Source: Acidobacteriota bacterium
Lineage (GTDB): Archaea; Nanobdellota; Nanobdellia; Woesearchaeales; DATGWN01
Assembly (NCBI GenBank): GCA_035299465.1
Contig: DATGWN010000047.1
Location: 716-64,715, forward strand
Direction of reading: 5' to 3'
DNA length: 64,000 nt
Every line of letters begins with the position of its first letter. Positions within the stretch are counted from its first letter, which is position 1. The translations under genes were made by a program, and so were the position numbers. The notes under the pieces were generated by a model. The model did not search any database. It saw only the letters and a program-made list of their open reading frames with translations, and was not told the origin of the DNA. This document shows, one piece after another, positions 6,177 to 57,065 of the stretch.

Positions 6177-8309
6177 TTAGCGCGCAGTCATGAATGATTT
6201 TTGCATCGTTTGATTAGACATATTGGATAAAATCGACACTAACTGATTATAGACTGCGTCGCTGTCGAGTGCTTTTACATGAAGATCCGTATTGAGAGCA
6301 TCAGTGCACGTACCGTTGAAAATCGTGTAGAGTCTTGCGCCTTGTAATTTACTTGAGTCCTCGGTTACTACACCGTCTCCGAACGTGCCATCCATTACGC
6401 ATCCGGTATGTGCAATGACATACCATTCTCCGGTGACGGGAGGCAATTTACGCAAGAACGCACTTCCTGCAGAAAGATCGTCACATTCTTTTACCGCACC
6501 AAATAGTGGACAATAGGACTGCACTGTGCCGTTTACTCCGCCAAACGGTGAATTAAGCGTAATGAATGCCTTTACATCTTCGTCTCCGAACAGCGATTCA
6601 TATGAACGAGCAACCAATCCGCCCATGGAATGCGCTACTACGATTACTTGCGGTGCGCCACTTTGTTGTTTGATGTCTTTGATGATTTCTCTTAAGCGCA
6701 ATGCGTAATTCTCTATTCGTTCCGACTTTTGAATCGTTACGTCATATGAACCAAGATTGTACACAGTCTGGTAATAGAAACTTGCTCGCACGGTAAAAGG
6801 AATTTGGACAGGCACGCCACTAGCCGAATATTCGCCCGCATTCACATATCCTTCGTCTTCTAGCTTTTGCTGGATGTGAGCGAAGGCCTGCATAGAGACC
6901 AATGGGTCATTATCTTCGGTGAATGCGTGACCATGTATGAATACTATTGGAGGTTTTTGGTGTTGGCATTTGCCACAAGTGTCTTTTACGCAACAATTAG
7001 CGCTAGCATCCAGCAAATTCACAGGCGCGGACGGTTCGAATGGAGGAAAGGTGACTGTCATCACTTGCGCAATCGATGGCATGTTAATGTTGACAGTCTG
7101 CTTTACATCGCAGTAACTTGGGACTTGTGCAAGAAATGTCACAGACATATCTGGTTCGCTCAAAAGGGAAACTTGCGATTCATTGAGTATTGTGACATTT
7201 GTCAGATTCGCGCTCACGACGTACAGATTATGATCTTTTATTTTTTGAATCCGGTCACAGATTGTTTGGATTGTTTGGTTGGTTGAAGGCGGAGTTATTG
7301 TCAACGAAGTATTTACGAGTGAGATGTATGACTCAAGTTGATCCAGACGCTGCATTGTTGCGGCTTTTTTCTCAAGATATAATAGCGTTTTATTTGTAAG
7401 ATACGACGTTGCCCCTGTATAGATGACTTGCGTACGGGGAGGATCAGCGTCTGTGGTCATGGATAACACGTCAGACAATTTGCCGATAGCTAATGATACT
7501 TGCGCTGCATCCGTATCATGCGTTTGCGCGTATGTGATGAATTCAACGACCGATGTATTTGACAAAAATGTAATCGCATCCAGCTGCATATGTGCCAACT
7601 GATCTCTGCTGGCATTCGTGAACAACAACAAGGGCGCAAGCAACATGTTTGGTTCAAATGTGCGTATCAATGACTCGGAGAGATTATATTGCTGAGTATT
7701 CCAATACGCTGCCGCTGTCATGATTTGTGCGCGCGTGAATGTCGGAGCGGGTATTTCCGTTATCGGCCAAATATCCTTGAGTGTAAGGTAGTACTCGTAT
7801 TCGTCAAGATTGTCTTTAGCTTGTGTGAGTGCAGTCTGCAGTTCGTCTTTTCGTTCCAGAATTTTCTTATCTGTTTCATTAAGAGAGTATTCTAGGACAA
7901 TGAGTGTTGTTCGTTCGCGCGGAACACCGGTCGCAGGACAGAGCGATGACGGAAGCACGGCGCAACTAGTTCGAAAGTGAGTCATATATTGACCGAAACC
8001 GAACTCAGGTGCGGTGATATTGAACGTGTGCGATTCTTGCGGATTCGTTGAAGAGTAATTATAGACATCGTCGACCGAATAGTTACACACGGCGGAGCAA
8101 GTAGCGTATGTAAAAAAACGAGTGTCAATCGTAATCGGTACCGTTTGATTTGCGAGCACTTTTGCAACGAAAGGAGTAGGACTAACTTTGACTAGCACTT
8201 CGTCGTCGAGCGTGAAATGCACTTGTGCGAAAAGCAAGATGAGCAAAATGCCAATAAGTGCCGCTGCACTCATGATTGCGATTAGCCAAAAAAGGGTCTT
8301 GCGTTTCAT
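6177..8309 (-). CDS. secreted/membrane-anchored alpha/beta-hydrolase (lipase/esterase-like) with large N-x-S/T-rich N-terminal domain
   Basis: N-terminal TM/signal 'LFWLIAIMSAAALIGILLILLFA'. C-terminal 'VVAHSMGG' GxSxG nucleophile elbow and 'FIHGH' oxyanion region (PGAP1/DUF676-like lipase fold). More than 20 N-glycosylation sequons. Confidence 0.7.
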   Translation of the reverse strand: MKRKTLFWLIAIMSAAALIGILLILLFAQVHFTLDDEVLVKVSPTPFVAKVLANQTVPITIDTRFFTYATCSAVCNYSVDDVYNYSSTNPQESHTFNITAPEFGFGQYMTHFRTSCAVLPSSLCPATGVPRERTTLIVLEYSLNETDKKILERKDELQTALTQAKDNLDEYEYYLTLKDIWPITEIPAPTFTRAQIMTAAAYWNTQQYNLSESLIRTFEPNMLLAPLLLFTNASRDQLAHMQLDAITFLSNTSVVEFITYAQTHDTDAAQVSLAIGKLSDVLSMTTDADPPRTQVIYTGATSYLTNKTLLYLEKKAATMQRLDQLESYISLVNTSLTITPPSTNQTIQTICDRIQKIKDHNLYVVSANLTNVTILNESQVSLLSEPDMSVTFLAQVPSYCDVKQTVNINMPSIAQVMTVTFPPFEPSAPVNLLDASANCCVKDTCGKCQHQKPPIVFIHGHAFTEDNDPLVSMQAFAHIQQKLEDEGYVNAGEYSASGVPVQIPFTVRASFYYQTVYNLGSYDVTIQKSERIENYALRLREIIKDIKQQSGAPQVIVVAHSMGGLVARSYESLFGDEDVKAFITLNSPFGGVNGTVQSYCPLFGAVKECDDLSAGSAFLRKLPPVTGEWYVIAHTGCVMDGTFGDGVVTEDSSKLQGARLYTIFNGTCTDALNTDLHVKALDSDAVYNQLVSILSNMSNQTMQKSFMTAR

Positions 8310-9720: not shown

Positions 9721-11450
9721 AGTGTTTTTGCTTGTTCTCCGATTTTCATTGCAAGGAACGAACGCATTTTCTCTTGCTCAGCTAACATCTTTTCGACTTG
9801 CTTTGCTTTTTCATCCTGTTGGCGTGCGTCCATTGCTGCGAGCGTCTTCAAATATGCGTCAAATTTGGCAATGATTTTCTCTGCAGATAATTCGCCGATG
9901 CTGTCCAACCTGAATTTGAGTTTTTTGTCAAAGGACCACGTCAACATTTCAGGTGATACTACCATGTTGCCGGATCGAATGTCATCAAATACGTGTCCGA
10001 TTTGACGGTTATTCAATTCAATGGACTTAAGGTATTCACCAAGGTGTAACCATTGTTGTTGCGGCATATCAATAGGCAGACCTTTAGTAAGCGATAATTT
10101 GGAATAGTCCGCGAATTCTTGTGGCGTTGCCAAAGGCGACATCACGAACGTCTGTCCAAAGATTCTACTCTTTGTTGCTTTGTCGATGCCGTCCGAATAG
10201 TTTGCATCCATAATAAAGCCGACCTTACCTATCTTTGGAATCGAACTTCCGTCAAACATTTTCAGATACGTCGAGAAGATCTTCTGTTCTTCTTGCGTCA
10301 TACCGCTTGCTCGGTTTCCAAAAATTGTATCTACATCAGCGATATACTGAACAACGATACCCGGGAAGCCTCGGATTTTTGCGGCGAATTTATCTAACTC
10401 TACTGCTGACTGATTTTGATAGTGCGAAATATAATCAGTTGCACTGTGAATTCCTACCCAACACGGGATCTGTGCATCTTTGCACATTTGAGCAATCCAT
10501 TGCAAATGCGCGTTTGCAAATACAGTTTTACCACAACCAGGCGGGCCGTCGATGTATGTGCACATAGGCACTTTCTCGACGTTCTTTGCAACCGAGTGAT
10601 CGTATAGGGCAATCTTGAGCAGCCATTGCTGAACGTCCGCTTTCATTTTTGCGTTGCCGATGATATCATCAGGCATCAAGCGCATGACACGTTCATCTAT
10701 TTCGACGCGATTATCTTTTGTCGAAAATGCGCCATCTTTGATCGTGAAGCGATCGTACTTGAGTGTGAGCCCTTCGATGTCGCGTGCTTTTGCCACGTCC
10801 TTGTGTGTCGACCATCTGAACTGGTTTATCCATGACGTGAATGTGTAGGCAAGGACGTCTTTGAGCGCTTCGTCGCTGGGCTTTTCGCCATCGGCTCTTA
10901 CTTTTGCAAACCACTTAGTCATATCGGCTTGCGTTTGCTTTACAAGATTTTGTGTCAGGGTTTCATCGTCGCGCGAGAAACTCATGTCTGCGTCGAATGC
11001 ATAGATGTCATTTGTCGCAGAGAGAGGTCGATTGAGCATAGATAGGCCAACGTGGCCAGCGAATGCTAATGCGTATTTGTTGGCAAGCTGTACGCTTGTC
11101 ACATAGTCCGCGCGTGTCGCAGAGGGCTTATCCTGTGTCGTTTGATCGTGTGTCGCAGTCAATCTCAATTCTAACGAGCCGACGTCCATGTTTTTTCGAA
11201 GCGTTTGCGTGGATTGCTGAAAAATACCTAATGCTTGTTCGTATACGTCGAGGATTTGTACTTGTGGAACGGTTATACGTGTACCATTTGCCAGCTCTTT
11301 GTTGACAAGTGCATATGCGCTTTGATAGACAGCAGCCTTAGGCATTGCAAGTTGCTGCAAGCCTTGAGCTGCATTGGGATGGGCAATATATTTGCGGATG
11401 CTTTCTAAACCGTCTTGTACATTTTTTGTGATGTCTTCATATTTTGTCAT
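9717..11450 (-). CDS. classical-clade AAA ATPase with ~300-aa novel N-terminal region and degenerate Walker B
   Basis: Walker A 'GPPGCGKT' (as in Cdc48 D2). 'VVQYIADVDTIFG' aligns to 'IIFIDEVDALTG' with DE->AD. SRH-like 'FIMDANYSDGIDKATKSRIF'. Confidence 0.8.
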   Translation of the reverse strand: MTKYEDITKNVQDGLESIRKYIAHPNAAQGLQQLAMPKAAVYQSAYALVNKELANGTRITVPQVQILDVYEQALGIFQQSTQTLRKNMDVGSLELRLTATHDQTTQDKPSATRADYVTSVQLANKYALAFAGHVGLSMLNRPLSATNDIYAFDADMSFSRDDETLTQNLVKQTQADMTKWFAKVRADGEKPSDEALKDVLAYTFTSWINQFRWSTHKDVAKARDIEGLTLKYDRFTIKDGAFSTKDNRVEIDERVMRLMPDDIIGNAKMKADVQQWLLKIALYDHSVAKNVEKVPMCTYIDGPPGCGKTVFANAHLQWIAQMCKDAQIPCWVGIHSATDYISHYQNQSAVELDKFAAKIRGFPGIVVQYIADVDTIFGNRASGMTQEEQKIFSTYLKMFDGSSIPKIGKVGFIMDANYSDGIDKATKSRIFGQTFVMSPLATPQEFADYSKLSLTKGLPIDMPQQQWLHLGEYLKSIELNNRQIGHVFDDIRSGNMVVSPEMLTWSFDKKLKFRLDSIGELSAEKIIAKFDAYLKTLAAMDARQQDEKAKQVEKMLAEQEKMRSFLAMKIGEQAKTL

Positions 11451-13940: not shown

Positions 13941-14054
13941 TGTTGTTACCCCTAAGTAGTATAATATTGAAACGTATATGCACTTCGTTTATATAGTTTT
14001 GCTCCGGAAGTCTCCGTTTTTTTAGTATTTTTCTCGTCGCAACAAAGTCAGTAT

Positions 14055-15440
14055 TTATAAACTGTCTATGGACTTGAGTTCTCCTAGTGTTTTTGTAAGG
14101 TCTAGGATCATGTTTCCTGCCAATTTTTTGCTATCTATTAGCATGACACGAGTCTTTGGACCTGCAGCCTTGCCTATGGCTTTGACATTTTCTTTTGCTT
14201 GACCGTCTCCATCTACCAAAAAGATACGTAGCAAAACATTTGGCATGGACGCGAAGTACTCGGCTTCTTGTACGGCGTCGGACAAACTGTCGGGCGCACC
14301 GTCTGAAACAAGATACGCCATCGATAATCGTCGATCGGTCAATGTTTCGCGCAACCATTTGAGTCCAAGATGCATCGGCGTGCCTTCGTTAGGAGTGCTG
14401 AGTTTGAGGTATTCTGCGTGTGTTAGACTGGTGACGCGATTGTGATTGAATACTGAGAGCGATACTTTGTTTTTGCTGCTGAGTTGTCGCATCATTGCAG
14501 CTGCGGCACCACCCATTTGTTGTGCGATGTCCCACCGTGTTTTCGTATCCGTTGCTCGATAATCCATGCTGCCGCTATAGTCAACTGTGATGGCCGTATC
14601 TAAGCCGAGTTCTCGATACGTCGGTGTTTTGTATTTTGCCACAACGAAATCTTCAATGATTGGTCGACTTCGTCCAGCAATTTTCATATTGACATTTGTC
14701 GCAAACCAGTCGACGTTTGGCAATTCTGACATATCTTCCATGTGAGTATAGCGGTCGAAGATACCGTTAAATGCAGCGATGGCTTTCTCTTTGATGCCTG
14801 ATTTTCCTGCAACAGAAAGACCTTTGAGCGTTTCGTCCAATAGACTATCTTGCAATCGCGAGACTAATTTATCGTCGTTAAAAGTGAGCGAACCGTATCT
14901 ATCCTTGGAGAACACACCTGTGTCAACTAGATGCTCGCGGATTTTTTCTTGCGCTATTCTTGTGACATCGGCATTTTGGATTTCCTGCTTTTTCTGCTCG
15001 ATTGCGGCAAGTTCTTCTTGCGTCTTTGCTTCGTATGTTGCAGCGACGTCTTGGACGGCTTGCGATTCAGATTGCTGTACCTGCGTTACTGTTTGCTCAA
15101 GCGTTTGTGCAGCAGTTTTCTTGGCATCGATCTCGTTTTTTGTGCCTACAATACTTTGCGCTTTAGAGCCGATACTGGAGAGTCCTTGCGTAATTTCGAG
15201 CGCTTGCAATCGTTTCTCGTATACATGCGTGGCATACTGCGAAATGAGGTCGTTGGTCTTTCGTTCATACCAACCTGTGAATATGCGTTTTCCGACAGAA
15301 AGCTTGAATTTTTCCGTTCTACTTAAGTTCAAGTATTCGTGGACTTTTTCTCGGAATTGAACGTCTCCTCTATATCGTGATCCAAATGAACGAATGTACG
15401 CTTCCTTTGTGTATCTGAGCGGGACTTTTAATTGCGTCAT
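14055..15440 (-). CDS. von Willebrand factor A (vWA) domain protein with N-terminal coiled-coil region
   Basis: C-terminal vWA with MIDAS 'DYSGSMD' (DxSxS), then T and 'SDGAPD'. N-terminal 300 aa Q/E/A-rich coiled coil. Start overlaps the upstream stop (ATGA). Confidence 0.8.
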   Translation of the reverse strand: MTQLKVPLRYTKEAYIRSFGSRYRGDVQFREKVHEYLNLSRTEKFKLSVGKRIFTGWYERKTNDLISQYATHVYEKRLQALEITQGLSSIGSKAQSIVGTKNEIDAKKTAAQTLEQTVTQVQQSESQAVQDVAATYEAKTQEELAAIEQKKQEIQNADVTRIAQEKIREHLVDTGVFSKDRYGSLTFNDDKLVSRLQDSLLDETLKGLSVAGKSGIKEKAIAAFNGIFDRYTHMEDMSELPNVDWFATNVNMKIAGRSRPIIEDFVVAKYKTPTYRELGLDTAITVDYSGSMDYRATDTKTRWDIAQQMGGAAAAMMRQLSSKNKVSLSVFNHNRVTSLTHAEYLKLSTPNEGTPMHLGLKWLRETLTDRRLSMAYLVSDGAPDSLSDAVQEAEYFASMPNVLLRIFLVDGDGQAKENVKAIGKAAGPKTRVMLIDSKKLAGNMILDLTKTLGELKSIDSL

Positions 15441-16327
15441 GAGTCACCACCCTTATATCCGAATATAGAGAGAAAACCATAATAGGTACGTTTGATGAAG
15501 CCTTTCTTCTTCTTGACGGGGCCTGCTTTTTTGACAATCTTTTCCAGATTTCCTGTGCTTGCAAGTTGCTCGGCAGTGGCATTTGTTTTCAGTAATTCAA
15601 GTCCCAAAGTAATGTCAGCAGGATCACTTGTTTGGTTTGAGTTTGATTCGAGGTTTGATTCTTGCACCTGCGCTGTTTGTGCTGCATACTGGTCGACGTT
15701 CGTTTCGGGAGTTGATTGAGATTGCGGGCTTTGCTGCGGACTTTGATCTGCGGCTTTTTTTTGCTTTTCGTCCAGCGGTTCCTCTAACATTGCATCCAGC
15801 TCGAGAATCTTGGCTAGACCTTCTTCGCCACCTATCTCTTTGAGCTGTGCAGCTACTTTTGCACGAGATTCGTCTAATTGGCCTTGTGCACAAAGATATT
15901 CTTGCGTCGATTTGTCGTACGCATTTAGTGTTGCGTCAAGTTGTGCTTTTTGTTCCTGCAATTTTGCAGTGTATTGATTTTTTATTGCGAGTATCTCTGC
16001 TTCGCGCTTTTCTTGCAGCACTCTTTTTTTCTCGGCTTCTTCTGCGGAGAGAGCGTCAAGTGCTTTCATCTGTTGATAGCCGTGACTTTTTGCAATTTGC
16101 TGAGAAATCTGACTGACAATACTTTCTGAACTGAGAATACTGTCAACTGTGCGCTGTGCATCAGCGCCTCGTTTCCACGCACTAAACATAGCTTCGTTCA
16201 ATGCAGCTTCAAGCCGTTTTAGATCGACTGGCGGAGTGCGGAATAGTTCACACTGTGCAAGCCTGAACTCGTCAAGTGACATCCTAACCTTTAAGTGGGA
16301 TCTTGCACTTGGAATGCTGCATCGCAT
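15437..16327 (-). CDS. Q/E-rich coiled-coil protein with polybasic C-terminus
   Basis: 296 aa. 'KKAGPVKKKKGFIKRTYYGF' tail. Overlaps the upstream gene by 44 nt. Confidence 0.65.
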   Translation of the reverse strand: MRCSIPSARSHLKVRMSLDEFRLAQCELFRTPPVDLKRLEAALNEAMFSAWKRGADAQRTVDSILSSESIVSQISQQIAKSHGYQQMKALDALSAEEAEKKRVLQEKREAEILAIKNQYTAKLQEQKAQLDATLNAYDKSTQEYLCAQGQLDESRAKVAAQLKEIGGEEGLAKILELDAMLEEPLDEKQKKAADQSPQQSPQSQSTPETNVDQYAAQTAQVQESNLESNSNQTSDPADITLGLELLKTNATAEQLASTGNLEKIVKKAGPVKKKKGFIKRTYYGFLSIFGYKGGDS

Positions 16328-18575
16328 CCATATAGAATTGTGCAGTCTCTTTGAGTTGTGCTATGCTGAGCTGATGGAAATTAGCTTCCGTATCAAAGAA
16401 CATACCTGCGAGTGGATATTCCTTCTTGAGGATATGAGTTTCTCGTGCGTTCTGGTTTTTCACTGCTGCTTGCAATTCTTCAAATGGTCGTACAAGCTCA
16501 GTAACGTCAGCATATGTTTTTTGAAGCTGTGTTTCAAATCGTTTTGCGATTCCAGCAGATACTGATTCTTTACTTGCAATGTCCTTGAATTGGTTGCACC
16601 ACCAGACATCTGCTTCTTGTGTGAAGACGGATTCAATTTGACCAGTCACGAGTTTTTCAATCGCTTCGTAATTTGCGATTTCGGCTGCTCGATCGTCGCA
16701 CGCAAGTCTACTTCTTGTCGCGAACAAGACACCGTTCGTTGCATAGGGCATCGTTACGATGTGTGGTCGCTTTTCGTAGAAGAGTCTGTCAATGAATAGT
16801 TGTGATCGCGCTGCATACAATGCGTCAAGTTTGGAACGGTTTCCTAAGATTATGCTCGTGCTGTCTTCGCTTCGGATCTCACGCATTTTGATATAAAGTG
16901 CGTCGATGGATCTTTCAAGCAACGATGGCATGGAAACAGTTTTGACAATGTCGATTGGTTGCATGATGTGTACGTCCGGGATTTCTACTGCAGATGGTTC
17001 TTCACGCAAGCCGTGAATACTTGCACGAGTAATCTTATGGCTAACGTCAACATCTTGAGGATAGTGCATCGGGAAGAACAATACTCTGTCCTTTATTGGA
17101 GCAGTAAAGCAGTCGACTTCGTTTGCGTTCTTGAAAATTGCAGCGTGTGCAGGATTCTCGAATCTGATCTGGTCAATCTTGACTCTGTTATTTGAAAGGG
17201 CGAATCGAAGTGTGTCTTTTTCTGCGTCTGGGATCAAGTGGGCTTCGTCAATGATGAGAACACCGTTGTTTGTTCGCACGAGTGCACCATACTGTACGCC
17301 TTCTGGGTCGTAACCGTTGGATTTTGCATTTGCGTCAGTTGGCATCTTATAGCCGACAAGGTTGAATTGTCTGACACCTGGTGTACCGTTGAGAAGCTCG
17401 ACACCAAAACCTGGTCCGAATGCCTTGACATCGACGTTAATTTTTGAAGGATGTTTTGGCTTAAAGATACCTGTTGCGCGATATTTACCAGTGTTATCAT
17501 GCGCGATCATCGTCTCTGCACAAGGTATTACTTTTCGTGCGAAGCTTGGATCGATGAGTGAGAATGGGGACGTCTGACATTGCGAGCCTTCAGCAACGAA
17601 TTGGATTTCACGTTGCTGTGCAATAGCTGCAAGATCTTCACATATAGTAGTCTTTCCACCGCCCGCTGGACCATAGAAAACCATGTCTTTGTTCATCAAG
17701 ATTCCAGTTGCAACATCGTTTGCGAATGCAGTTTCCACTTTTGTCTTTGGGAACACGCGTGCAAACGCTTCTTCGCGAACTACTTCTTCGATATCAGCTG
17801 GTTCTTCTTGCCCGTGACTTGATACTTGCAATACGCCATGTGCTTCGTCAATTGGGAGCGTATACATTGTTTCTGAACCACGTTTTGGTTTGACAGCAAT
17901 TGCGATGATCCCTTTGTCCTTATCGTATTCTACGATGCGGCCAGTTGTATTTGCTTTGATTTTTTTCTTTTCTCGTCCTTCTGAAACTTCAATTGCTTCT
18001 GTGACTCGAATCAAATGTCCAAGGTCTGGTTTTGCAACAACGCCTGGATGCAAATCATATGCCACCGGTACTTGATCATCGGATGTGAATTCAACATGAT
18101 TCCAAGGTACTGTGACTCTGTATTTATTGCCCACTTTTGTGGATTCGTCGACTTGGCCGTCGAGCTTTTTTACCGGATCGTCGTATTCAACTACGATGCC
18201 TGATGAGCCTGATTTTTTTGGTGAATCGCCGTATTCATACACGCGACCAACCATATTTTCCAAATCCCATTTCTTGTATGGACCTACGACGCGAACTGCT
18301 GCCGTCGTTTTGTCAGATTTCGATAATGATGTCAGATAATCGTATTTGTCTGCAGCTTCTTTCAATTCTGATGCTTTTACTGTCTCTGCTTTGACTGCTG
18401 GAATCCATTGTCCGAGCATATCTGGTGATAACTGGGATCGAGCCTCGTCTCTGGCTTTCTTGAGTCGTTCGACAGTAATCAATGCAAGATATTCGGATGA
18501 TGTTTTAGGAACTACGCCCATATCGATTAAATCTTGCGCTGTCTTTACTCGAGAATATTTATCTGCTAATGCCAT
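16284..18575 (-). CDS. MoxR/ChlI-like (helix-2-insert clade) AAA+ ATPase with ~280-aa N-terminal repeat domain and C-terminal extension
   Basis: Walker A 'GPAGGGKTT'. Walker B/sensor 'LIIDEAHLIPDAEKDTLRFALSNNRVKIDQIRFENPAHAAIFKNANEVD' matches the DExNLL...L..LE.g.v.i.R...PA.F.L.A..NP pattern of Mg-chelatase/MoxR AAA+. N-terminus has duplicated 'GR(V/I)xEYD' modules. Confidence 0.8.
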   Translation of the reverse strand: MALADKYSRVKTAQDLIDMGVVPKTSSEYLALITVERLKKARDEARSQLSPDMLGQWIPAVKAETVKASELKEAADKYDYLTSLSKSDKTTAAVRVVGPYKKWDLENMVGRVYEYGDSPKKSGSSGIVVEYDDPVKKLDGQVDESTKVGNKYRVTVPWNHVEFTSDDQVPVAYDLHPGVVAKPDLGHLIRVTEAIEVSEGREKKKIKANTTGRIVEYDKDKGIIAIAVKPKRGSETMYTLPIDEAHGVLQVSSHGQEEPADIEEVVREEAFARVFPKTKVETAFANDVATGILMNKDMVFYGPAGGGKTTICEDLAAIAQQREIQFVAEGSQCQTSPFSLIDPSFARKVIPCAETMIAHDNTGKYRATGIFKPKHPSKINVDVKAFGPGFGVELLNGTPGVRQFNLVGYKMPTDANAKSNGYDPEGVQYGALVRTNNGVLIIDEAHLIPDAEKDTLRFALSNNRVKIDQIRFENPAHAAIFKNANEVDCFTAPIKDRVLFFPMHYPQDVDVSHKITRASIHGLREEPSAVEIPDVHIMQPIDIVKTVSMPSLLERSIDALYIKMREIRSEDSTSIILGNRSKLDALYAARSQLFIDRLFYEKRPHIVTMPYATNGVLFATRSRLACDDRAAEIANYEAIEKLVTGQIESVFTQEADVWWCNQFKDIASKESVSAGIAKRFETQLQKTYADVTELVRPFEELQAAVKNQNARETHILKKEYPLAGMFFDTEANFHQLSIAQLKETAQFYMDAMQHSKCKIPLKG

Positions 18576-18711
18576 AGTTTCACCGTATTATATTGATACA
18601 CGCTGGGCGCTACTTTTGCAAAATGAAAATAGCTCGCATGTTAATTGAAGCACCGAGCCTCACTTTAAATACTTTACTACCTCATAGTAACTACTATCCG
18701 ACCCCGTATGC

Positions 18712-19328: not shown

Positions 19329-19460
19329 TTTTTTCCTCGCTTACCCATGTAAGGCGTTTTTGCCTTCCGTTTAGGATACCTGTGGAGTGTGTAGTAGGTA
19401 TTTGAGTATTTGTCCCGTTTCTTTCTGTTTTTTCGCTGTTTTATGTTACGTTTTCGCTAG

Positions 19461-19470
19461 TTTTATAAGA
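19461..19470 (+). promoter_or_regulatory. archaeal TATA box ('TTTTATAAGA') about 26 nt upstream of the Lrp start (near-leaderless)
   Basis: AT-rich TATA-like element at the canonical distance upstream of ATG 19492. Confidence 0.4.
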
Positions 19471-19491
19471 AAAGCATTATACCTTACAGAC

Positions 19492-20487
19492 ATGACGGAG
19501 AAAGAAAACTCAATCAAACTCGACAAACGCGACAAGAGACTCATTCATATCTTGGGCGAGAATTCACGTATGCCGTTGACTGAGATTGGAAAACATCTTC
19601 GCTTGCATCCTGATACTGCACGATACAAATTGCAACGACTCTTTGAACTAGGAGTTGTATGCAAAAACACTGCAGAGCTTGACTTTATCAGACTTGGATA
19701 CAGCATTTACCAAGTTTTCATGTTAGTCGATACTGACACGGAAGAAGAATACACTAATTTCATCACGATGCTTTCACAGCATCCAAACACAAAAGAAGTG
19801 CGAACGTATCACGATAGATGGGACGTCGAATGGGTTGTCGTTGCGCGAAACTTACAGGAATTCGACGAGTTCTTCTGGGAATTCACGGCAAAATCTAAGG
19901 CACGAATTTTACACAAGAACCATCTGAGTGTTGTCGAATATCTTCGAACGACGAACGTGGCTCACAGTCTTTTCCCGAATGAAACGGTCAAAATTGAACA
20001 GCAAAAATCGTCGCAATCATTGTCACTAGATTCGACTGATCGAGCATTGCTGCAAGTTCTTGCAAAAGATGCACGGACTGCGGCGACAAGCATTGCGGCT
20101 GAGATTGGAGTTAGTGTCGATAGCGTCATACGACGAATCAAGAAATTGTACTCAGACGGCGTTATCACAAAATTCTCCATCGTCCTTGACCGAGCAAAAA
20201 TCGGGCATGATTGGTATGTATTTGCAGTTAGATGCAACTCATTAGCCAAGAATATACAGAGTTCCTTACGCGAATTCGTACGAACACACCCTCACATATT
20301 CCGCTGCGTAAAAGTACATGGCTCATGGGACTTCCTGTTCTATATTTCAACTGATTCACGCGAAGAATTCCACAAGACTATTCGCGAAATCAAGACTATT
20401 TTGAGTGCTCATCTGACTGATTATGACACATGGATTATCTACGATGAAATCCAGCAGCAGCATATTCCAAAAACTATTACGGATTAG
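19492..20487 (+). CDS. Lrp/AsnC-family transcription regulator with two tandem HTH+RAM modules
   Basis: 'KRDKRLIHILGENSRMPLTEIGKHL' and 'STDRALLQVLAKDARTAATSIAAEIGVS' AsnC-type HTHs. Start placed at 'MTEKEN', downstream of the 19387 ORF start (19387 kept as the alternative). Confidence 0.75.
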   Translation: MTEKENSIKLDKRDKRLIHILGENSRMPLTEIGKHLRLHPDTARYKLQRLFELGVVCKNTAELDFIRLGYSIYQVFMLVDTDTEEEYTNFITMLSQHPNTKEVRTYHDRWDVEWVVVARNLQEFDEFFWEFTAKSKARILHKNHLSVVEYLRTTNVAHSLFPNETVKIEQQKSSQSLSLDSTDRALLQVLAKDARTAATSIAAEIGVSVDSVIRRIKKLYSDGVITKFSIVLDRAKIGHDWYVFAVRCNSLAKNIQSSLREFVRTHPHIFRCVKVHGSWDFLFYISTDSREEFHKTIREIKTILSAHLTDYDTWIIYDEIQQQHIPKTITD

Positions 20488-23257: not shown

Positions 23258-23989
23258 ATGGAAAAGCTGCACATTGAAGTCAGAACTATCGATAACATAC
23301 GTACTATGTATATCGAGGGAAAGGCTCAAAGCGCAATGGATGTAACCAATCCAACGCTTGCGGTTTTTGATTATACAAAGTATTTCTATGTACCTTTGTG
23401 TTTGATTGCTGTGAAACGCGCGCTCTTCATAGGTGGAGGCGGATTCAGCGGTCCAAAAATCTATGCGCATCATGGTATCGCCGTAGACGCTGTGGAAGTT
23501 AACCAAGAAGTGGTCGACATCGCAAAACGCCAATTCGCTCTTGACACTCAGACATTCAATGTGTTCGTTGAGGACGGAAGAGCTTTTCTGACGCAGTGCA
23601 GTGTTTCATATGATGCAATAATATTGGATGCATTCATCGCAGAAAAAGTACCATTGCAGTTCACGACGTTTGAATTCTTCACATTGGTGCGAAAGCATCT
23701 TTCTGAAAATGGCTTACTCGTGTTCAACGTGATTTCTGCACCAGAATTATGGTTCTTCCAATCCTTAGTACGCACTCTAAGCAGTGTATTTGCAAGTGTA
23801 CTCGCTTTTGATCTGAGTCCGGCTGCGACACAAACTCGAAACATTATCATAATCGCAAGTCCCTCTAAGCTTAACCCGACGCAAGTGCGAAAAACTTGTG
23901 CACAGTCAACGTTCGACTTAGCAAGAGAGATGGAACTATTCATAGAAAACGTACAGACTCGCCGCGGCGAGATTCTGCGTGATTCTTAA
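23258..23989 (+). CDS. spermidine synthase-like / class I SAM-dependent (aminopropyl)transferase
   Basis: 'LFIGGGGFSGPK...VEVNQEVVDIAKRQF...IILDAF' resembles the spermine/spermidine synthase fold. Confidence 0.6.
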   Translation: MEKLHIEVRTIDNIRTMYIEGKAQSAMDVTNPTLAVFDYTKYFYVPLCLIAVKRALFIGGGGFSGPKIYAHHGIAVDAVEVNQEVVDIAKRQFALDTQTFNVFVEDGRAFLTQCSVSYDAIILDAFIAEKVPLQFTTFEFFTLVRKHLSENGLLVFNVISAPELWFFQSLVRTLSSVFASVLAFDLSPAATQTRNIIIIASPSKLNPTQVRKTCAQSTFDLAREMELFIENVQTRRGEILRDS

Positions 23990-24423
23990 TTGACTTTATA
24001 GACGACAACGCCCACTTTAGTGTGATTTAGAAGCGAGTCTGGGTTGGTATAATTAAGTTGGATTCCTGACCGGAAGACTGCGTTTGGCAGCGTGCATGTC
24101 GCAGTGTAATTTCCAAGGTCACCTGGCGCAAGTGTGGCAGGGCCTAGTGCATTTGCGCATTTGTCAATCGTGACTTGTACATTAGTAAGATCTATCGGCA
24201 ATCCGTTTTGAATGGAAAGAATAACACCAGTCTGGTTGGCACGTGCATCGACACAGATGATGCCGGAATAAAACTCACATTTTTCATTGACGAACGAGTC
24301 CAGATCAAACACACCAGAATACACGAGTACGCCTAACGTGAGCAAGATGATTGAAAATGCCCAACCATACGTCATCAAAAATTCTACGGCCGCCTGGCCC
24401 TTTCGATTATTCTTTCGCATCAT
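23986..24423 (-). CDS. archaeal type IV pilin-like protein (class III signal peptide)
   Basis: 'RKGQAAVEFLMTYGWAFSIILLTLGVLV': KG|Q cleavage site plus hydrophobic stretch. Confidence 0.75.
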   Translation of the reverse strand: MMRKNNRKGQAAVEFLMTYGWAFSIILLTLGVLVYSGVFDLDSFVNEKCEFYSGIICVDARANQTGVILSIQNGLPIDLTNVQVTIDKCANALGPATLAPGDLGNYTATCTLPNAVFRSGIQLNYTNPDSLLNHTKVGVVVYKVN

Positions 24424-24424
24424 G

Positions 24425-25996
24425 TCATAGTACTCCTGAGAAGAGCAGGTTTAGTACCCATCTCAGAACAATAAAGAGAGTCATCGATATCGCCCAGAAA
24501 ATAGGCATATCACGCACAGAACCAAACGCTTTTCCAGTTCTGATTGCGGAAATGATAATAGTCGACATTGTCGTCGTCAAGAACAACATCACTAAGCAGA
24601 AAATAAAGAAGTCGGATTGGCTGACTGCGTCAGTGGACAATGACAGCGAAATTCCCGCCGCGTTGCCACCGCTTCCAGCACTTTGCGCGGCATTCATCTT
24701 CGCGCCGACTTCTTGGACAATCGTGAGTAATTGTGTTGCAACGGCAAACAGACCTGGCGCAGCTACGACTACTGCGAATACAATGAAGATAACGTAGGAT
24801 GTGACGTTTGCAGACATACTTTGCTTACGCAAGTCGATATCTTCCAGGTTTAGTGCAATGTTTTCTAATAAGTCGCCGATTTCACTACCTGCATCCATGC
24901 CTTCAACAATGAGACCAACCGAGCGGCGAATAATCTTCGAATCGTACTTTCTGCCAAAGTCTTGCAATGCAGAGGAAAGATCTTGACCGACCATCGCTTT
25001 TTTTGCGATGATCTCGATCTCCTTAGATAGTATGCCAAATTGCGGACGTGCACCACGCCATAATGCTTGGTCAATAGTCATCCCAGCTCTAATATTTGCC
25101 GCAACAACGTGCAAGAATTCAGGGAAGTGCTTTTCGACGGCATCTTTTCTCTGCGCAATGCGTAAGTCAAGGAATGCGAATGTCAATAAGGATAACACGA
25201 ATGTGCCGACTGGATAGACGAGCGCTGCAAAGAACATAAGTACACTGATATAATAGAAGATGCCACCAAGGCCTTCATATTTCGTATAAATGAAATAAAG
25301 ATAGATCAGTGAACAGATGACAATCGAAAATTTGTTTATCTTTGCAAACATTTCTCGATATGAAAGCGAAAAACCTGCAGTCTCTATGTATGCGTTTAGT
25401 TTGCGCTTGAATTCTGCATCAGCGCTTTTCTTATGAACGGCAGGTTTGTGGTCTTTGGACGTTACGATGTTCTTAAAATTAGTGAGAAACTCGACAATCG
25501 TATTCTGCTTTTTTGCTTCTTTCGGTGGCGACGGCACTTGCGGCTTTGGTTGCTCTTTTCTTTCGAACACTTTTGCTATTGTGTTTGATAGCGATGTAGA
25601 AATATTCTGAGTTGTCTGAGAAATTCTTTGAGATATCTTTTGCGATAATGAGATGTGTGGCGATATTTGGGAAACTGGCTGCGACTGTTCGTTTTGCACG
25701 CTTGCTTGCACTTTTTGTTCTTTCGCGTCAGCTTTTTGCTTTTCCTTTTCTACAATGAGTCTTTTTGCAGACTCAAGTTTGTCTTCGATGTCTTGTGATT
25801 TTGTTTCTTTTACTGGGGCAGACTTTTCAAGTATAGCTTTTTTTGCAGATTCAATCTTTGCAAATGACTGATCCAATTCCTTTTTTTTCTCTGTCTGCGA
25901 TTTGAGAATCTTTTGCTTTGCTGCGTCGATCTTAGCAGCCATAGACTGGTTCACTTCCTGTTGCAATGCCGTTTTCGCAGTCTGTTTTTTTGCCAT
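24425..25996 (-). CDS. T2SSF-domain pilus platform protein (TadC/FlaJ half) with ~200-aa K/Q/S-rich N-terminal extension
   Basis: C-terminal T2SSF domain ('ALWRGARPQFGILSKEIEIIAKKA...') with TM helices. N-terminus low-complexity and coiled-coil-like. Confidence 0.75.
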   Translation of the reverse strand: MAKKQTAKTALQQEVNQSMAAKIDAAKQKILKSQTEKKKELDQSFAKIESAKKAILEKSAPVKETKSQDIEDKLESAKRLIVEKEKQKADAKEQKVQASVQNEQSQPVSQISPHISLSQKISQRISQTTQNISTSLSNTIAKVFERKEQPKPQVPSPPKEAKKQNTIVEFLTNFKNIVTSKDHKPAVHKKSADAEFKRKLNAYIETAGFSLSYREMFAKINKFSIVICSLIYLYFIYTKYEGLGGIFYYISVLMFFAALVYPVGTFVLSLLTFAFLDLRIAQRKDAVEKHFPEFLHVVAANIRAGMTIDQALWRGARPQFGILSKEIEIIAKKAMVGQDLSSALQDFGRKYDSKIIRRSVGLIVEGMDAGSEIGDLLENIALNLEDIDLRKQSMSANVTSYVIFIVFAVVVAAPGLFAVATQLLTIVQEVGAKMNAAQSAGSGGNAAGISLSLSTDAVSQSDFFIFCLVMLFLTTTMSTIIISAIRTGKAFGSVRDMPIFWAISMTLFIVLRWVLNLLFSGVL

Positions 25997-26811
25997 TACA
26001 TGTCAACCGCCGGTCGTGCACCTTTGATGATGGAGAAGAACATGTATTGAAACGACGTGACCACAAGAGCGATACCCAACAGCGCGGAAAGAGATAGTTT
26101 CAAGTCGGCAAATGAGATGAGTACAACAACCATGACCATGCCTAGCGATGGGAAAATGACTGCAATCATCAAATAGAACATCGCAATTGGGTTTAGCTTC
26201 TTACCATATCGCTCGACTTCGATCAATTGCTTTTTGTTGATCTGATCAAGTACTGTCGTCAGTGAGATTGAAATATCCGCGCCAGTCTGGATAGAATTTA
26301 CAATTTGCCACATGACTTTCTGAAAATTCTCGGATGGATTGAGAACGATTGCTTTTGTGATTGCTTCTTCTACGCTGGTACCGACGTCGACATCGTCCAC
26401 TATTTTCTTGAAATACTTTCCAATGCCGTCGTAGTCACGAGCGATGTTCTTGAGCGCATCATAAATCGGAACGCCCGATTTAATCTCAACAATGAGGAAT
26501 TTTCCGACAAAGAGAATGTCCTTGTCGATGTCCTTTCTCTTTCGCATGACGACGACGTCAGGCATCTTGAGCATATTAAGAAATGACAGGCAAAAGAAAA
26601 GCGGTAAGATAATGATCAATGGCCAGAATGGTTTTTTGAAGACGGACAGAATCATCGCACAAGAGAGCGTTATCGCTAGCGCCATAGCCACTGCTTGACT
26701 GAGGATTTTTCTAATATAGATTGCAGGTTCATACTGCATTTCTGCCTGCTGCAACGTGACGTATAGATTCGGAAATTTCCTTGCAACGTAGTGGAAAAAC
26801 GGGTGTACCAT
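25996..26811 (-). CDS. T2SSF-domain pilus platform protein (TadB/FlaJ half)
   Basis: T2SSF domain 'GVPIYDALKNIARDYDGIGKYF...' with 3-4 TM helices. Start overlaps the neighbouring gene. Confidence 0.75.
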   Translation of the reverse strand: MVHPFFHYVARKFPNLYVTLQQAEMQYEPAIYIRKILSQAVAMALAITLSCAMILSVFKKPFWPLIIILPLFFCLSFLNMLKMPDVVVMRKRKDIDKDILFVGKFLIVEIKSGVPIYDALKNIARDYDGIGKYFKKIVDDVDVGTSVEEAITKAIVLNPSENFQKVMWQIVNSIQTGADISISLTTVLDQINKKQLIEVERYGKKLNPIAMFYLMIAVIFPSLGMVMVVVLISFADLKLSLSALLGIALVVTSFQYMFFSIIKGARPAVDM

Positions 26812-26814
26812 AGT

Positions 26815-28449
26815 TTAGCCTATTTTCTTGAGCAGTTCGCTTGGATTGTCGTAGTATTCTGCCATGACATGGCTGACGCCATCGATTGTATTGATGTTAT
26901 TCTTGACAAGATACGCAAGTACGCGCTCTTTTTCTTTGAGTTGCGCTTTGATCTGTGCGGCAGTCATGCCTGAGAACGTCTGTAATGTTTTTAGAAGTAC
27001 AATTGGCTCGGCCACTTTTTTGAGCTTGTCGACTGAAGGATCGTATCTGAAGAGTACGTGCGCTTCGCCGTCTTCGAGGATTTCCGCGATTTCAAATGTT
27101 CGTCGAAGTCCAGTTCGTCTGTTACGGTATTGGATGACGGCCAAGGAAAGCGCAGGGATCATTGTCTTTGGAATGTTGATTGGCGGATTCGTCAGACGTG
27201 TGACTGTTTCTGCCGCAGTGTTTGCGTGAATAGTCGCGTAGACTGAGTGACCTGTGTGAATGGCTTCGAAAAGAACTTCTGCTTCGGCAGGTCTTCTGAT
27301 TTCACCGACGAGGATTCTATCCGGACGCATACGTAGCGAGTTTTGCAAGAGCATGAGCATCGTTACGCCGCCACGACCTTCTGCGTTAGGCAATCGAGTG
27401 AGCATCGGAATCCAGTGCAAGAATTTTGGCAACTTGATTTCTCTGGTATCTTCGATTGAGATGATGCGCTGACTTGGCGGGAAGAAATTTGACATGATGT
27501 TTAGCATACTTGTCTTACCTGACGCAGTACCACCAGCGATAAGCATCGATAATTCGTATTGGATTGCGTGCCAAATGAGTGCTGCTGCCTCGAAACTGAG
27601 CGTGTTATGTTTGAGAAAATCAGCAATTGTCCAAGGCTGTGCCGAGAACTTACGGATAGTGATCGTATTACCTTCGTTTGAAATCGGCATGAGTGTTGCG
27701 TTGACACGGTCACCGACGTTGATGGAGACGTCTAGCAATGGTTCGAGGATACTGATCTGTCGACCAACTTTACGTCCGATGGTGGTCGCAAAATAGCGGA
27801 TCTGCTCTTCAGTTTCCAATTTGATGTTGGTTTTCAGCAAGCCGTGTCGTCGGTGATAGACCCAAATCGGCATGTGCGAACCGTTGATTGCGATTTCTTC
27901 TAAGCCTTGGTCACTCATGAGGACTTCGACTTCTCCTAAGCCAATACTTCGCAAGAGAACGTAGGATACGAAGAATTTTATGTGCTCAGCTTCTGCTGTC
28001 GGAAAGTATTTTTTGACGAGGACTTCGATCGTGTCTTTGAAGACGCCATGTACGTCTTCTTGTTTTTTTGTCATATCCTTGAGCTCGATATTTCCCAAGT
28101 TGACTGTTTTTACTAATTGCTGACGGATATTTTCCAAGATGAGAAGCGTGTGTTCACCAATGCTTGGGACTGAAACGTCATAAAGTGGGACATATTCGCC
28201 TTTTTGTCTGAAGATCTTGATTTGCAGCGGGATGTCACGACAGAGTACTTCGTATGAATCAATCATATCGATACTTTTCTGTCCTTTTGCGTCGCCTAGT
28301 GATGATGAGAAGTCGACGGTCTCCTGCGAAGTCTTTTCCTTCTTATTGAGATTCGTCTTTATCGCACGAGCCTGTTCCTTTTCAGAAACTGACTGGATTG
28401 TTTGAATGGCTTTGGATGGCTGATCTTTACTTTCTCTTTTTTGCCCCAT
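26815..28449 (-). CDS. type IV pilus/archaellum assembly ATPase (FlaI/TadA/VirB11 secretion ATPase family)
   Basis: Walker A 'GGTASGKTS', 'ISIEDTRE' Asp box, 'GEIRRPAEAEVLFEAIHTGHSVYATIHAN' His box. Confidence 0.85.
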   Translation of the reverse strand: MGQKRESKDQPSKAIQTIQSVSEKEQARAIKTNLNKKEKTSQETVDFSSSLGDAKGQKSIDMIDSYEVLCRDIPLQIKIFRQKGEYVPLYDVSVPSIGEHTLLILENIRQQLVKTVNLGNIELKDMTKKQEDVHGVFKDTIEVLVKKYFPTAEAEHIKFFVSYVLLRSIGLGEVEVLMSDQGLEEIAINGSHMPIWVYHRRHGLLKTNIKLETEEQIRYFATTIGRKVGRQISILEPLLDVSINVGDRVNATLMPISNEGNTITIRKFSAQPWTIADFLKHNTLSFEAAALIWHAIQYELSMLIAGGTASGKTSMLNIMSNFFPPSQRIISIEDTREIKLPKFLHWIPMLTRLPNAEGRGGVTMLMLLQNSLRMRPDRILVGEIRRPAEAEVLFEAIHTGHSVYATIHANTAAETVTRLTNPPINIPKTMIPALSLAVIQYRNRRTGLRRTFEIAEILEDGEAHVLFRYDPSVDKLKKVAEPIVLLKTLQTFSGMTAAQIKAQLKEKERVLAYLVKNNINTIDGVSHVMAEYYDNPSELLKKIG

Positions 28450-45907: not shown

Positions 45908-46011
45908 GACCCTGTAGCTTAGCCTGGTGGAGCGCCGGTCTTATATGACCGCGATTCATACGCGCTGTCGAAGACAGCCGGTGGTCCCGAGTTCAAATCT
46001 CGGCAGGGTCA
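45908..46011 (+). tRNA. intron-containing tRNA, mature anticodon UAU (tRNA-Ile(UAU)); 30-nt intron at canonical 37/38
   Basis: Acceptor GACCCUG/CAGGGUC+A73. D-arm GCUU-AGCCUGGUG-GAGC. Anticodon stem CCGGU/GCCGG. T-arm CCGAG-UUCAAAU-CUCGG. 37 nt lie between the anticodon-stem halves, giving a 7-nt loop CUUAUA|A plus a 30-nt intron UGACC...AAGAC with an internal CGCG/CGCG hairpin and bulge-helix-bulge-like geometry. Confidence 0.6.
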
Positions 46012-55772: not shown

Positions 55773-57065
55773 ATGGCACGAGCAAAAGAACACATCAACC
55801 TGATTTTTATCGGGCACGTTGACCACGGTAAGTCAACATCAGTCGGTCGACTCATGTTCGACGCAGGCTTCATCGACGAAGTTACAATGCGAAAGTTGAA
55901 AGAAAAAGCACAATCACTTGGTAAAGCTGGTTTCGAATTCGCCTATGTTATGGACGAATTGAAAGAAGAACAAGAACGTGGTGTCACTATCGACCTCGCT
56001 CACAAGAAGTTCGAAACTAAGAAGTACGACTACACTATCATCGACGCACCAGGTCACAAAGACTTCATCAAAAACATGATCACTGGCGCATCACAAGCAG
56101 ACGCAGCAGTTCTAGTCTGTGCAGCACCAGAAGGTGTCTCACCACAAACTCGAGAACACGCATTCTTGTCAAAGACTTTCGGTGTCAAACACCTTATCGT
56201 CGCAATCAACAAGATGGACATGGTCAAGTACGACCAAGCTAAGTTCAATGCAGTCAAAGCTGATGTTGAAACTGTCCTCAAGAACGCAGGCTGGAGACCA
56301 GACCAAATCTTGGCTTTCGTCCCTACTGCAGCATTCGTTGGTGACAACGTTTTCAAGAAGTCAACTAACATGCCTTGGTACACTGGAAAGAGCATCTTCG
56401 AATTGATGGATGATATCCCAGCACCAACTAAGCCAACAGACAAACCATTACGACTCCCAATCCAAGACGTCTATACTATTACAGGTATCGGAGCAGTCCC
56501 AGTTGGTAAAGTTGAAACTGGTATCATGAAGGTTAACGACAAAGTTGTTGCAGTCCCAGGCCGTGAAGGTAAGGGTGTTCTTGGCGATGTCAAGACAATC
56601 GAAATGCATCACTCACAAGTCCAATCAGCAGAACCTGGTGACAACATCGGTTTCTCAATCAGAGGCTTTGGTGCTAAAGACGTAGCTAAGGGCGATGTCA
56701 TCGGTCACCAAGACAACTGGCCAACGGTAGCTGAAGAGTTCACAGCACGAATCATCGTCTTGAACCACCCATCCGTTATCACGATCGGTTACACTCCAGT
56801 ATTCCACATCCACACTGCACAAGTTGCTTGCCAAGTTATTGCAATCGAAAAGAAGCTTAACCCAGCAACTGGTGAAGTTCTTGCGGAAAATCCAGACTTT
56901 ATCAAGAATGGAGACGCTGCAGTCGTACGACTCAAGCCAACAAGACCACTCGTCATCGAAAAGTCAGCAGACAACCCGCAAATGTCACGATTCGCAATCC
57001 GCGATTCAGGTGCAACAGTTGCAGCTGGTATGTGTATTGACATTAAGCCTAAGAAGCTCAATTAA
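55773..57065 (+). CDS. tuf: translation elongation factor 1-alpha (aEF-1alpha)
   Basis: 'GHVDHGKST', 'DAPGH', 'NKMD'. AGGAGG RBS 8 nt upstream. Confidence 0.95.

Follow-up and report, generated by a model that had tools for sequence, protein, structure and literature searches.

Several described systems pair an AAA+ protein (ATPases associated with diverse cellular activities) with a partner that carries a von Willebrand factor A (vWA) domain, and the general mechanism of such AAA+/vWA systems has been summarized (PMC7159879). Those closest to the locus described here are magnesium chelatase (BchI/ChlI with BchD/ChlD), the PrkA/YeaG-YeaH-YcgB/SpoVR system and the FtsH-type ternary systems built around MoxR and vWA proteins (Kaur et al., 2020; PMC7159879). 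In this study, we analyzed a 64,000-nucleotide stretch of contig DATGWN010000047.1 (hereafter the window), whose minus strand carries a run of tightly packed open reading frames (ORFs) between positions 8359 and 18575. They form two blocks: block A consists of the ATPase AAA763, the middle protein cc296 and the vWA protein vWA461, and block B of p418, p378, AAA577 and p453. We consider it reasonably likely that this cluster specifies a chromosomal housekeeping machine of a DPANN archaeon (Diapherotrites, Parvarchaeota, Aenigmarchaeota, Nanoarchaeota and Nanohaloarchaea), probably membrane-associated, in which an AAA+ ATPase and a protein with a metal ion-dependent adhesion site (MIDAS) serve in assembly or remodelling.

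With magnesium chelatase, the cluster shares the AAA+ superclade with its pre-sensor-1 hairpin and a MIDAS-vWA partner that is joined via a flexible or charged region. By contrast, BchI and ChlI have neither the N-terminal barrels nor the 240-residue C-terminal extension of AAA763, the partner encoded in the cluster has no AAA-like half, and the cluster includes no H subunit and no tetrapyrrole context. In the PrkA/YeaG system, YeaH is the vWA-type protein. This system resembles the cluster in the insert that follows Walker A and in the pairing of an ATPase with a vWA-type protein, AAA_PrkA is the nearest Pfam model for the wider clade around AAA763, and linkage of YeaG, YeaH and YcgB is reported in the literature. 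Its accessory genes differ, however, and PrkA_C, DUF444 and SpoVR were not detected in the cluster proteins with Pfam or NCBIfam. The ternary systems, finally, offer the same combination of an AAA+/vWA pair with a second, classical AAA+ protein and lineage-specific α-helical proteins, an analogy that hints at a large complex whose assembly and disassembly are controlled. Unlike them, the cluster has a constant architecture, contains no effector, ubiquitin-like or peptidase modules, lacks MoxR proper and encodes none of the third components described for these systems (VMAP, iSTAND, FtsH or a β-propeller protein; PMC7159879). Moreover, ternary systems occur in multicellular bacteria, whereas the cluster is vertically conserved in reduced DPANN archaea. 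An adjacent gene for a vWA/MIDAS co-chaperone, as expected of MoxR proteins, is present in the form of vWA461, which lies two genes downstream of AAA763 and is always linked to it.

Exactly seven families recur over the 15 loci that were compared with jackhmmer and all-against-all BLAST. The gene order inside each block is constant, and the trio of block A is found in the same order at every related locus with enough sequence. The blocks themselves are collinear in the window and in L001, L004, L007, L009, L010 and L011, permuted in L013 and L002, arranged head-to-head in L008 and separated by 7 kb in L005. A locus scan that took one genome for each GTDB species gave 12 loci, nine of which are labelled Woesearchaeota, Pacearchaeota or Nanoarchaeota, while three come from 'Methanosarcinales' third-party-annotation bins. 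The seven-gene set is inherited jointly across Woese-, Pace- and Nanoarchaeota and is seen only in DPANN archaea; given that the roughly 10-kb cluster is kept at about 30% protein identity across order- and phylum-level groups, an important function is implied. Its guanine-cytosine (GC) content is typical of the window, relatives of the family are absent from IMG/VR and from plasmid and phage collections, no integrases or transposases recur beside it in other loci, and none of the seven proteins has a transmembrane segment. Likewise, PADLOC, PHROGs and NCBIfam gave no meaningful match for any of them, and no description of the cluster was found in the searchable literature (DPANN combined with vWA, AAA or MoxR; Woesearchaeota combined with vWA). 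A reading of the stretch made from its sequence alone (the sequence-only reading in the following) had proposed a three-protein unit; the trio does co-occur, and the unit has grown to seven genes with a second, classical AAA protein.

The contig bears the NCBI label 'Acidobacteriota bacterium', which is probably wrong, because the window encodes the archaeal elongation factors aEF2 and aEF1-α (within 50851-53046 and 55773-57065), archaeal pilus genes (23986-24423 and 24425-28449; one ORF resembles a pilin and bears an archaeal class-III signal, KGQAAVEFL..., and others are of T2SSE/F type) and a tRNA of apparent intron type; by its gene content, the organism looks like a DPANN archaeon. The tRNA, 104 nucleotides long, was found by Rfam at 45908-46011 on the plus strand with 54.7 bits and is missed by ARAGORN; its extra length suggests the intron-containing archaeal type.

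From its N- to its C-terminus, AAA763 comprises a helical domain, a pair of SH3-fold barrels, an AAA+ core of PrkA/ChlI-like type and a lid with a helical extension (Table 1). A word-index homologue search retrieved only two relatives, so that an exhaustive HMMER search of 1.84 billion protein representatives was needed; it yielded about 46 full-length members, and the resulting 44-sequence alignment was too diverse to drive the locus scan. In this alignment, K308, the sensor-1 residue N485, the arginine finger D496-R497 and the sensor-2 residue R580 are invariant, and E444 of the Walker B motif IIDEAH (D443/E444) nearly so. The AAA+ catalytic motifs of the active site are thus intact at the sequence level, and the P-loop and all three minus-strand ORFs of the sequence-only reading are real, at the positions given there. 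The sensor region that it quoted, between Walker B and sensor-1, aligns in the family profile with the pre-sensor-1 hairpin of BchI (1g8p, E = 7.8e-5), which heads the PDB sequences matched by this profile, followed by ChlI and MCM. At L009, two ORFs (3-248 and 767-2176) match the ATPase family, and the gene appears to be interrupted or frameshifted.

Mg_chelatase (PF01078) is the sole Pfam model above its cut-off for AAA763 (25.4 versus 20.3 bits), in a partial match over profile positions 98-161 of 207. Among the 44 family members, 40 match Mg_chelatase, 35 AAA_5, 26 AAA_PrkA (at E ≤ 0.01), 18 MCM and four the MoxR family AAA_3 (PF07726; best E = 2.9e-4), which does not match AAA763 itself. 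On AAA_PrkA (PF08298), AAA763 scores 15.9 bits, below the cut-off of 25, and relatives of about 500 residues outside the family score 36-45 bits over profile positions 88-325. Because of these family counts and the AAA_PrkA matches of the shorter relatives, AAA763 is to be placed, by profile similarity, in the pre-sensor-1-hairpin superclade between PrkA-AAA and ChlI/BchI, and MoxR proper is ruled out. Its initial description as a MoxR/ChlI-like ATPase with a MIDAS-vWA partner therefore holds for the superclade and the partner, but not for MoxR as the family.

Residues 1-87 are the most conserved N-terminal part of AAA763; AlphaFold2 predicts helices at 3-8, 13-18 and 26-48, and the region is kept in family members without barrel 1. 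Within it, residues 13-48 (18500-18540, minus strand) form the most conserved stretch, with a predicted short helix, loop and long helix, a pattern that, read by eye, we take to recall the helix-extension-helix motifs of the SAP/Rho_N type. The two β-rich modules that follow, previously noted as related and left without a family, are real, duplicated, SH3-fold barrels of the Xrn1-SH3/CPH type. The AlphaFold2 model of the N-terminal part (predicted local distance difference test, pLDDT, 86.3) contains consecutive β-barrels at residues 93-163 and 168-252, with a pLDDT above 90 for the strands of the second, and both modules show the five-stranded SH3-like fold. Their mutual similarity is not significant in hhalign with three sequences; with profiles of 38 and 44 sequences, 48 columns align with a Prob of 80% and P = 1.3e-5, and the register is the one originally proposed. 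SH3_12 (PF18129) does not match AAA763 directly but is matched by four of 44 orthologues (best 1.8e-6), and the same exhaustive HMMER search retrieved stand-alone proteins of two to five barrel-1-like copies that match Pfam SH3_12 (Xrn1 SH3-like) at 4e-34, with overlapping Cul7/CPH (PF11515) matches. The fold relatives listed for the barrels are Xrn1, HERC2 CPH, PsaE, NdhS, Spt5/NusG KOW, SH3 and Tudor domains. The sequence-only reading would have given up the novelty of the modules for a well-known domain in a characterized MoxR subfamily; the fold is well known, and since no characterized MoxR subfamily is known to carry such barrels, this objection applies by half.

Barrel 1 is a discrete unit that is absent in some family members, as follows from P0026 (662 residues) and other orthologues that lack exactly residues 64-171. 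Its closest relatives outside the family, P0092 and P0094, are stand-alone proteins of four to five tandem SH3_12-like barrels encoded outside the window; a Phage_gp49_66 domain is fused to one of them, and the JGI annotation of one reads 'RNase P subunit p29'. In Mpa/ARC/PAN and in MCM, a helical segment and tandem small β-barrels precede the ATPase ring, and the barrels form a stacked hexameric collar. The comparison with AAA763 is one of analogy only: the barrels have an OB (oligonucleotide/oligosaccharide-binding) fold there and an SH3 fold here, the AAA+ clades differ, and the collar of AAA763 is putative.

The second gene, cc296, starts at 16282, because the orthologue alignments begin at M16. 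Its start codon lies one nucleotide past the AAA763 stop (TAGgATG), and its stop overlaps the vWA461 start as ATGA, a gene arrangement that shows translational coupling of all three. Behind a conserved N-terminal motif, 'A(D/Q)C.LFR.PP.D', the protein has a helical region and a disordered, variable linker, and it ends in a basic/aromatic amphipathic tail, whose hydrophobic moment is the protein-wide maximum in six of 13 homologues. Since it had been described as a Q-rich coiled coil with overlapping gene ends, several corrections are due: the 3' ATGA overlap stands, whereas the 44-nucleotide 5' overlap does not; glutamine makes up 10% of cc296 itself and 2-12% across the 13 homologues, so that the Q-richness is not conserved; and the heptad periodicity is weak, for which reason a classical coiled coil was dropped. 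The question of whether this gene always co-occurs has a clear answer, as all 13 related loci whose sequence continues beyond the ATPase gene contain it; cc296 is the obligatory third member of the trio.

The cc296 linker varies in length among the homologues, and a short linear motif, '(E/P/T/K)IDPL', is found in it in five of 13 (L004, L005, L007, L008 and L014). Two roles considered for the protein were discarded, namely that of the linker as a PxxP ligand of the SH3 barrels (PxxP occurs in only 5/13 homologues) and that of the C-terminal carboxylate in feeding the MIDAS (fused relatives have the corresponding segment in their interior).

The third protein, vWA461, begins with a conserved motif (residues ~15-75) and a heptad-like stretch (~57-140), which are followed by a conserved linker domain and the vWA domain. 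Among 11 orthologues, the MIDAS residues D287, S289, S291 and D380 are invariant and T354 nearly so, which shows a site that is complete by sequence and bears out the canonical C-terminal MIDAS of the sequence-only reading; the roughly 300 residues of coiled coil assigned to the same protein shrink to the heptad-like stretch. Its own Pfam matches are weak (VWA_2 at 0.071); its homologues at E = 1e-20 carry Pfam VWA_2, and four vWA structures (E = 0.002-0.02) are the top matches of its profile in the PDB.

The origin of this trio becomes apparent from simpler relatives. On other archaeal contigs, AAA+ proteins of about 500 residues without the N-terminal region are encoded directly ahead of a single vWA protein of 554-611 residues with Pfam VWA_2. 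In these two-gene pairs (L016, L017, L019, L021 and L022), the AAA+ core (profile E = 1e-25 to 1e-52) and the vWA partner (hidden Markov model, HMM, E = 1e-9 to 7e-24) are homologous to those of the cluster, and order and tight coupling are the same. The pairs differ in that they lack the N-terminal helical domain and the SH3 barrels, and in that their partner is one polypeptide instead of cc296 and vWA461. The match of the vWA461 HMM spans the C-terminal two-thirds of the fused partners, which start with LP[DEK]C where cc296 starts with A(D/Q)C, and which have an internal Arg/aromatic amphipathic segment where cc296 has its C-terminal tail. At L015, a cc296-like ORF (E = 1.6e-13) comes after the gene for a short ATPase, and at L020, three ORFs in the order cc296, then vWA461, take the place of the single partner, in what is an independent split. 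By these sequence comparisons, cc296 and vWA461 look like the fission products of one ancestral partner, which supports a physical trio. Block B is absent around all simpler pairs and accordingly goes with the SH3 barrels.

Block B is headed by p418, a strongly heptad-periodic helical protein that is found in ten loci and has no Pfam or PDB match; L005 has two adjacent paralogues of it (569-1804 and 1972-2787). For p378, a conserved α+β protein with five relatives in the word-index search, a confident model was obtained that has no fold relative in the PDB, and its PDB sequence profile is likewise without a match. AAA577 is a single-domain, classical-clade AAA protein (Pfam AAA, PF00004, 1e-9) whose PDB matches are AFG2, spastin, VAT and katanin (1e-5 to 3e-3). 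Its 260-residue N-terminal domain belongs to no assigned type, Walker A, the sensor-1 asparagine and one arginine are conserved, and an FtsH-type transmembrane segment or peptidase part is absent. The last protein, p453, has no assigned fold and no match in Pfam, NCBIfam, PHROG, PADLOC or PDB.

We propose that these proteins act together in the manner suggested by better known AAA+/vWA systems. By analogy with BchI-BchD, CbbQ-CbbO, NorQ-NorD, RavA-ViaA and midasin, the MIDAS of vWA461 would grip an acidic residue of a client, which the AAA763 ring would then pull, remodel or release at the expense of ATP. Because cc296 and vWA461 correspond to the single long vWA partner of the simpler relatives, they may act as one bipartite adaptor, and the Arg/aromatic amphipathic tail of cc296 probably keeps the complex at the membrane, on its cytoplasmic side. 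The SH3 barrels are likely a docking collar for block B, since barrels and block B appear only together; block B, in turn, would contribute a coiled-coil scaffold and a second AAA protein that assembles or disassembles this scaffold.

Several observations weigh against such a machine. No component has a recognizable enzymatic or effector domain. The Walker B motif of AAA577 is deviant (ADxD) in all eight orthologues, with 'IADVD' for 'IDEID' at residues ~368-374 (~10330-10350, minus strand); as A-D replaces the canonical D-E, this protein may bind ATP with poor hydrolysis or none, or may use a shifted acidic residue. Furthermore, a Zn-ribbon-like insert, CxxxC...CxxC, separates Walker A from Walker B and is nearly invariant in the AAA763 family consensus; of this insert, AAA763 itself (residues ~329-356, SQCQTS...PCAET; ~17510-17590, minus strand) keeps one of four aligned cysteines and has therefore apparently lost the metal site. 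Block B has a putative promoter of its own and is sometimes unlinked (L005), so that a physical complex of the two blocks is conjectural; the membrane binding of the cc296 tail is deduced from composition and hydrophobic moment; and cc296 and the N-termini of the fused partners align in hhalign with P = 0.01-0.04 only, their remaining resemblance being one of architecture and short motifs.

A bolder possibility, which we regard as tentative and rather doubtful, is that the cluster encodes a DPANN-specific, membrane-associated machine with two ATPases and no characterized counterpart, be it a cytoskeletal, a membrane-remodelling or a host-contact-site assembly apparatus. Here, the spastin/Vps4-like AAA577 would assemble or take apart a scaffold of p418 and two subunits of novel fold, while the SH3-collared AAA+/MIDAS motor would couple this scaffold to the membrane. 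If true, it would be a lineage-defining cell-biological system of these ultra-small symbionts.

The resemblance to MoxR-vWA ternary systems also raises the question of whether the cluster serves in conflicts with viruses, with the AAA+/vWA pair acting as a sensor switch that frees an effector, and the second AAA and the helical proteins as a regulated multimer of the FtsH type. The shared theme of a MoxR-like AAA+, a vWA protein, a further classical AAA+ and unique α-helical proteins (PMC7159879) speaks for it, as do weak matches to bpMoxR in five of 44 family members and the gene for a membrane-anchored, lipase-like α/β-hydrolase just downstream in the window. This hydrolase is not conserved as a neighbour, however, and the effector is wanting elsewhere too: vWA461 ends with its vWA domain, AAA577 lacks the transmembrane and peptidase parts of FtsH, and PADLOC recognizes none of the seven proteins. 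Moreover, gene set and order are fixed across phylum-level groups and include no variable modules, and neither the surroundings and GC content of the cluster nor the viral, plasmid and phage collections link it to mobile elements. A role in conflict is thus unlikely.

We also judge it improbable that the cluster is a divergent PrkA/YeaG-YeaH module for stress or starvation, in which an AAA+ 'kinase' or Lon-like protease with a vWA-like partner would regulate by proteolysis or phosphorylation. AAA_PrkA is matched by more than half of the family (26/44), the closest simpler relatives exceed its cut-off over about 240 profile positions, and the CNPFSLFD motif after Walker A as well as the pairing with a vWA gene recall YeaG-YeaH. 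Yet AAA763 itself stays below that cut-off, its C-terminal region has no conserved Ser-Lys or other protease signature in the 44-member alignment, Pfam and NCBIfam detect none of the companion domains named above in the cluster proteins, and PrkA operons have no counterpart of block B. Least of all do we expect a metal-chelatase or cofactor-insertion system of the BchI/BchD, CobS/CobT, NorQ/NorD or CoxD/CoxE type, which is very improbable in spite of the Mg_chelatase match, the BchI/ChlI structures at the top of the PDB sequence matches and a vWA/MIDAS partner as in BchD, CobT and NorD: the Mg_chelatase match is partial, the NCBIfam model BchD-ChlD hits AAA763 alone among the seven proteins with 11.6 bits against a cut-off of 499.6, vWA461 lacks the N-terminal AAA-like half, no H/CobN-like subunit or target enzyme (nitric oxide reductase, NOR; carbon monoxide dehydrogenase, CODH; Rubisco) is encoded in the 15 loci, and the block B proteins match no such family in Pfam or NCBIfam.

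For the housekeeping machine that we favour, the AAA+/vWA principle is already known; the SH3-barrel collar, the split adaptor and the linkage to block B, whose four genes include one for a second AAA protein and at least one whose product lacks a fold relative, appear to be new. DPANN genomes measure about 1 Mb. The simple archaeal pairs and the elaborate seven-gene form make up an evolutionary series, in which the tandem SH3-fold barrels represent an N-terminal architecture added to the AAA+/vWA theme. For further study, the cluster offers a concrete target, with a delimited set of genes and mapped domains, the residues of the catalytic sites and the MIDAS, and a segment predicted to bind membranes (Table 1).

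Table 1. Genes, domains and sequence motifs of the seven-gene cluster, in window positions
Feature	Position	Strand	Basis or remark
TATA-like motif TCAATATAATAC	18585..18596	-	Ends 9 nucleotides upstream of the AAA763 start codon
AAA763	16284..18575	-	763-residue AAA+ ATPase; ORF call, Pfam Mg_chelatase, BchI 1g8p profile match
N-terminal helical region of AAA763, residues 1-87 (VKTGQDLIDLGVVPK..HLALIT..RL)	18315..18575	-	Alignments, AlphaFold2
SH3-fold barrel 1, residues 88-172	18060..18314	-	Xrn1 SH3-like/CPH type
SH3-fold barrel 2, residues 173-262	17790..18059	-	hhalign to barrel 1, AlphaFold2 strands
AAA+ core of AAA763, residues ~270-520	17016..17768	-	Alignments, BchI profile match
Walker A of AAA763, GPAGGGKT, residues 302-309	17649-17672	-	Sequence motif
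Walker B to sensor-1 of AAA763, including pre-sensor-1 hairpin	17112-17255	-	Alignment with BchI
cc296, 281 residues counted from M16	15437..16282	-	Orthologue alignments; putative helical adaptor
Amphipathic Arg/aromatic tail of cc296	~15440-15514	-	Kept in 13/13 homologues
vWA461, 461 residues	14055..15440	-	ORF; MIDAS and vWA profile matches
vWA domain, residues ~278-461	14058-14609	-	C-terminal end of vWA461
MIDAS DxSxS of vWA461	14568-14582	-	Invariant residues
TATA-like motif TCAATATTATAC, near-identical to the first	13959-13970	-	Ends 18 nucleotides upstream of the p418 start codon
p418, 418 residues	12684..13940	-	First gene of block B; strongly heptad-periodic; 10 loci
p378, 378 residues	11467..12603	-	Conserved α+β protein
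AAA577, 577 residues	9717..11450	-	Single-domain classical-clade AAA; 9 loci
p453, 453 residues	8359..9720	-	Last gene of block B; 9 loci; fold without assignment

Some neighbouring genes deserve mention. Directly downstream of the cluster (6177-8309, minus strand), lies the gene for a 710-residue protein that begins with a hydrophobic anchor and ends in a lipase/PGAP1-like α/β-hydrolase domain; it was rejected as a member of the system, as it is not a conserved neighbour in other loci. The upstream ORF192 was dropped because it is not conserved and is set apart by a terminator-like hairpin. Further upstream, and divergent from the cluster, lies a gene for a double Lrp/AsnC-type regulator (19387-20487, plus strand). 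A similar double helix-turn-helix regulator is encoded upstream of the short ATPase at L015 (6288-7331); the regulator is not conserved in the other loci.

Both blocks are preceded by a TATA-like motif with the consensus TCAATAT(A/T)ATAC. It has three exact sites in the 64 kb and, with one mismatch allowed, four matches where 0.6 are expected by chance. Its shared position upstream of AAA763 and p418 suggests two promoters, one for each block. The third exact site, TCAATATTATAC at 62315-62326 on the minus strand, lies inside an 862-residue ORF (60889-63477) and may be a chance occurrence or an internal promoter.

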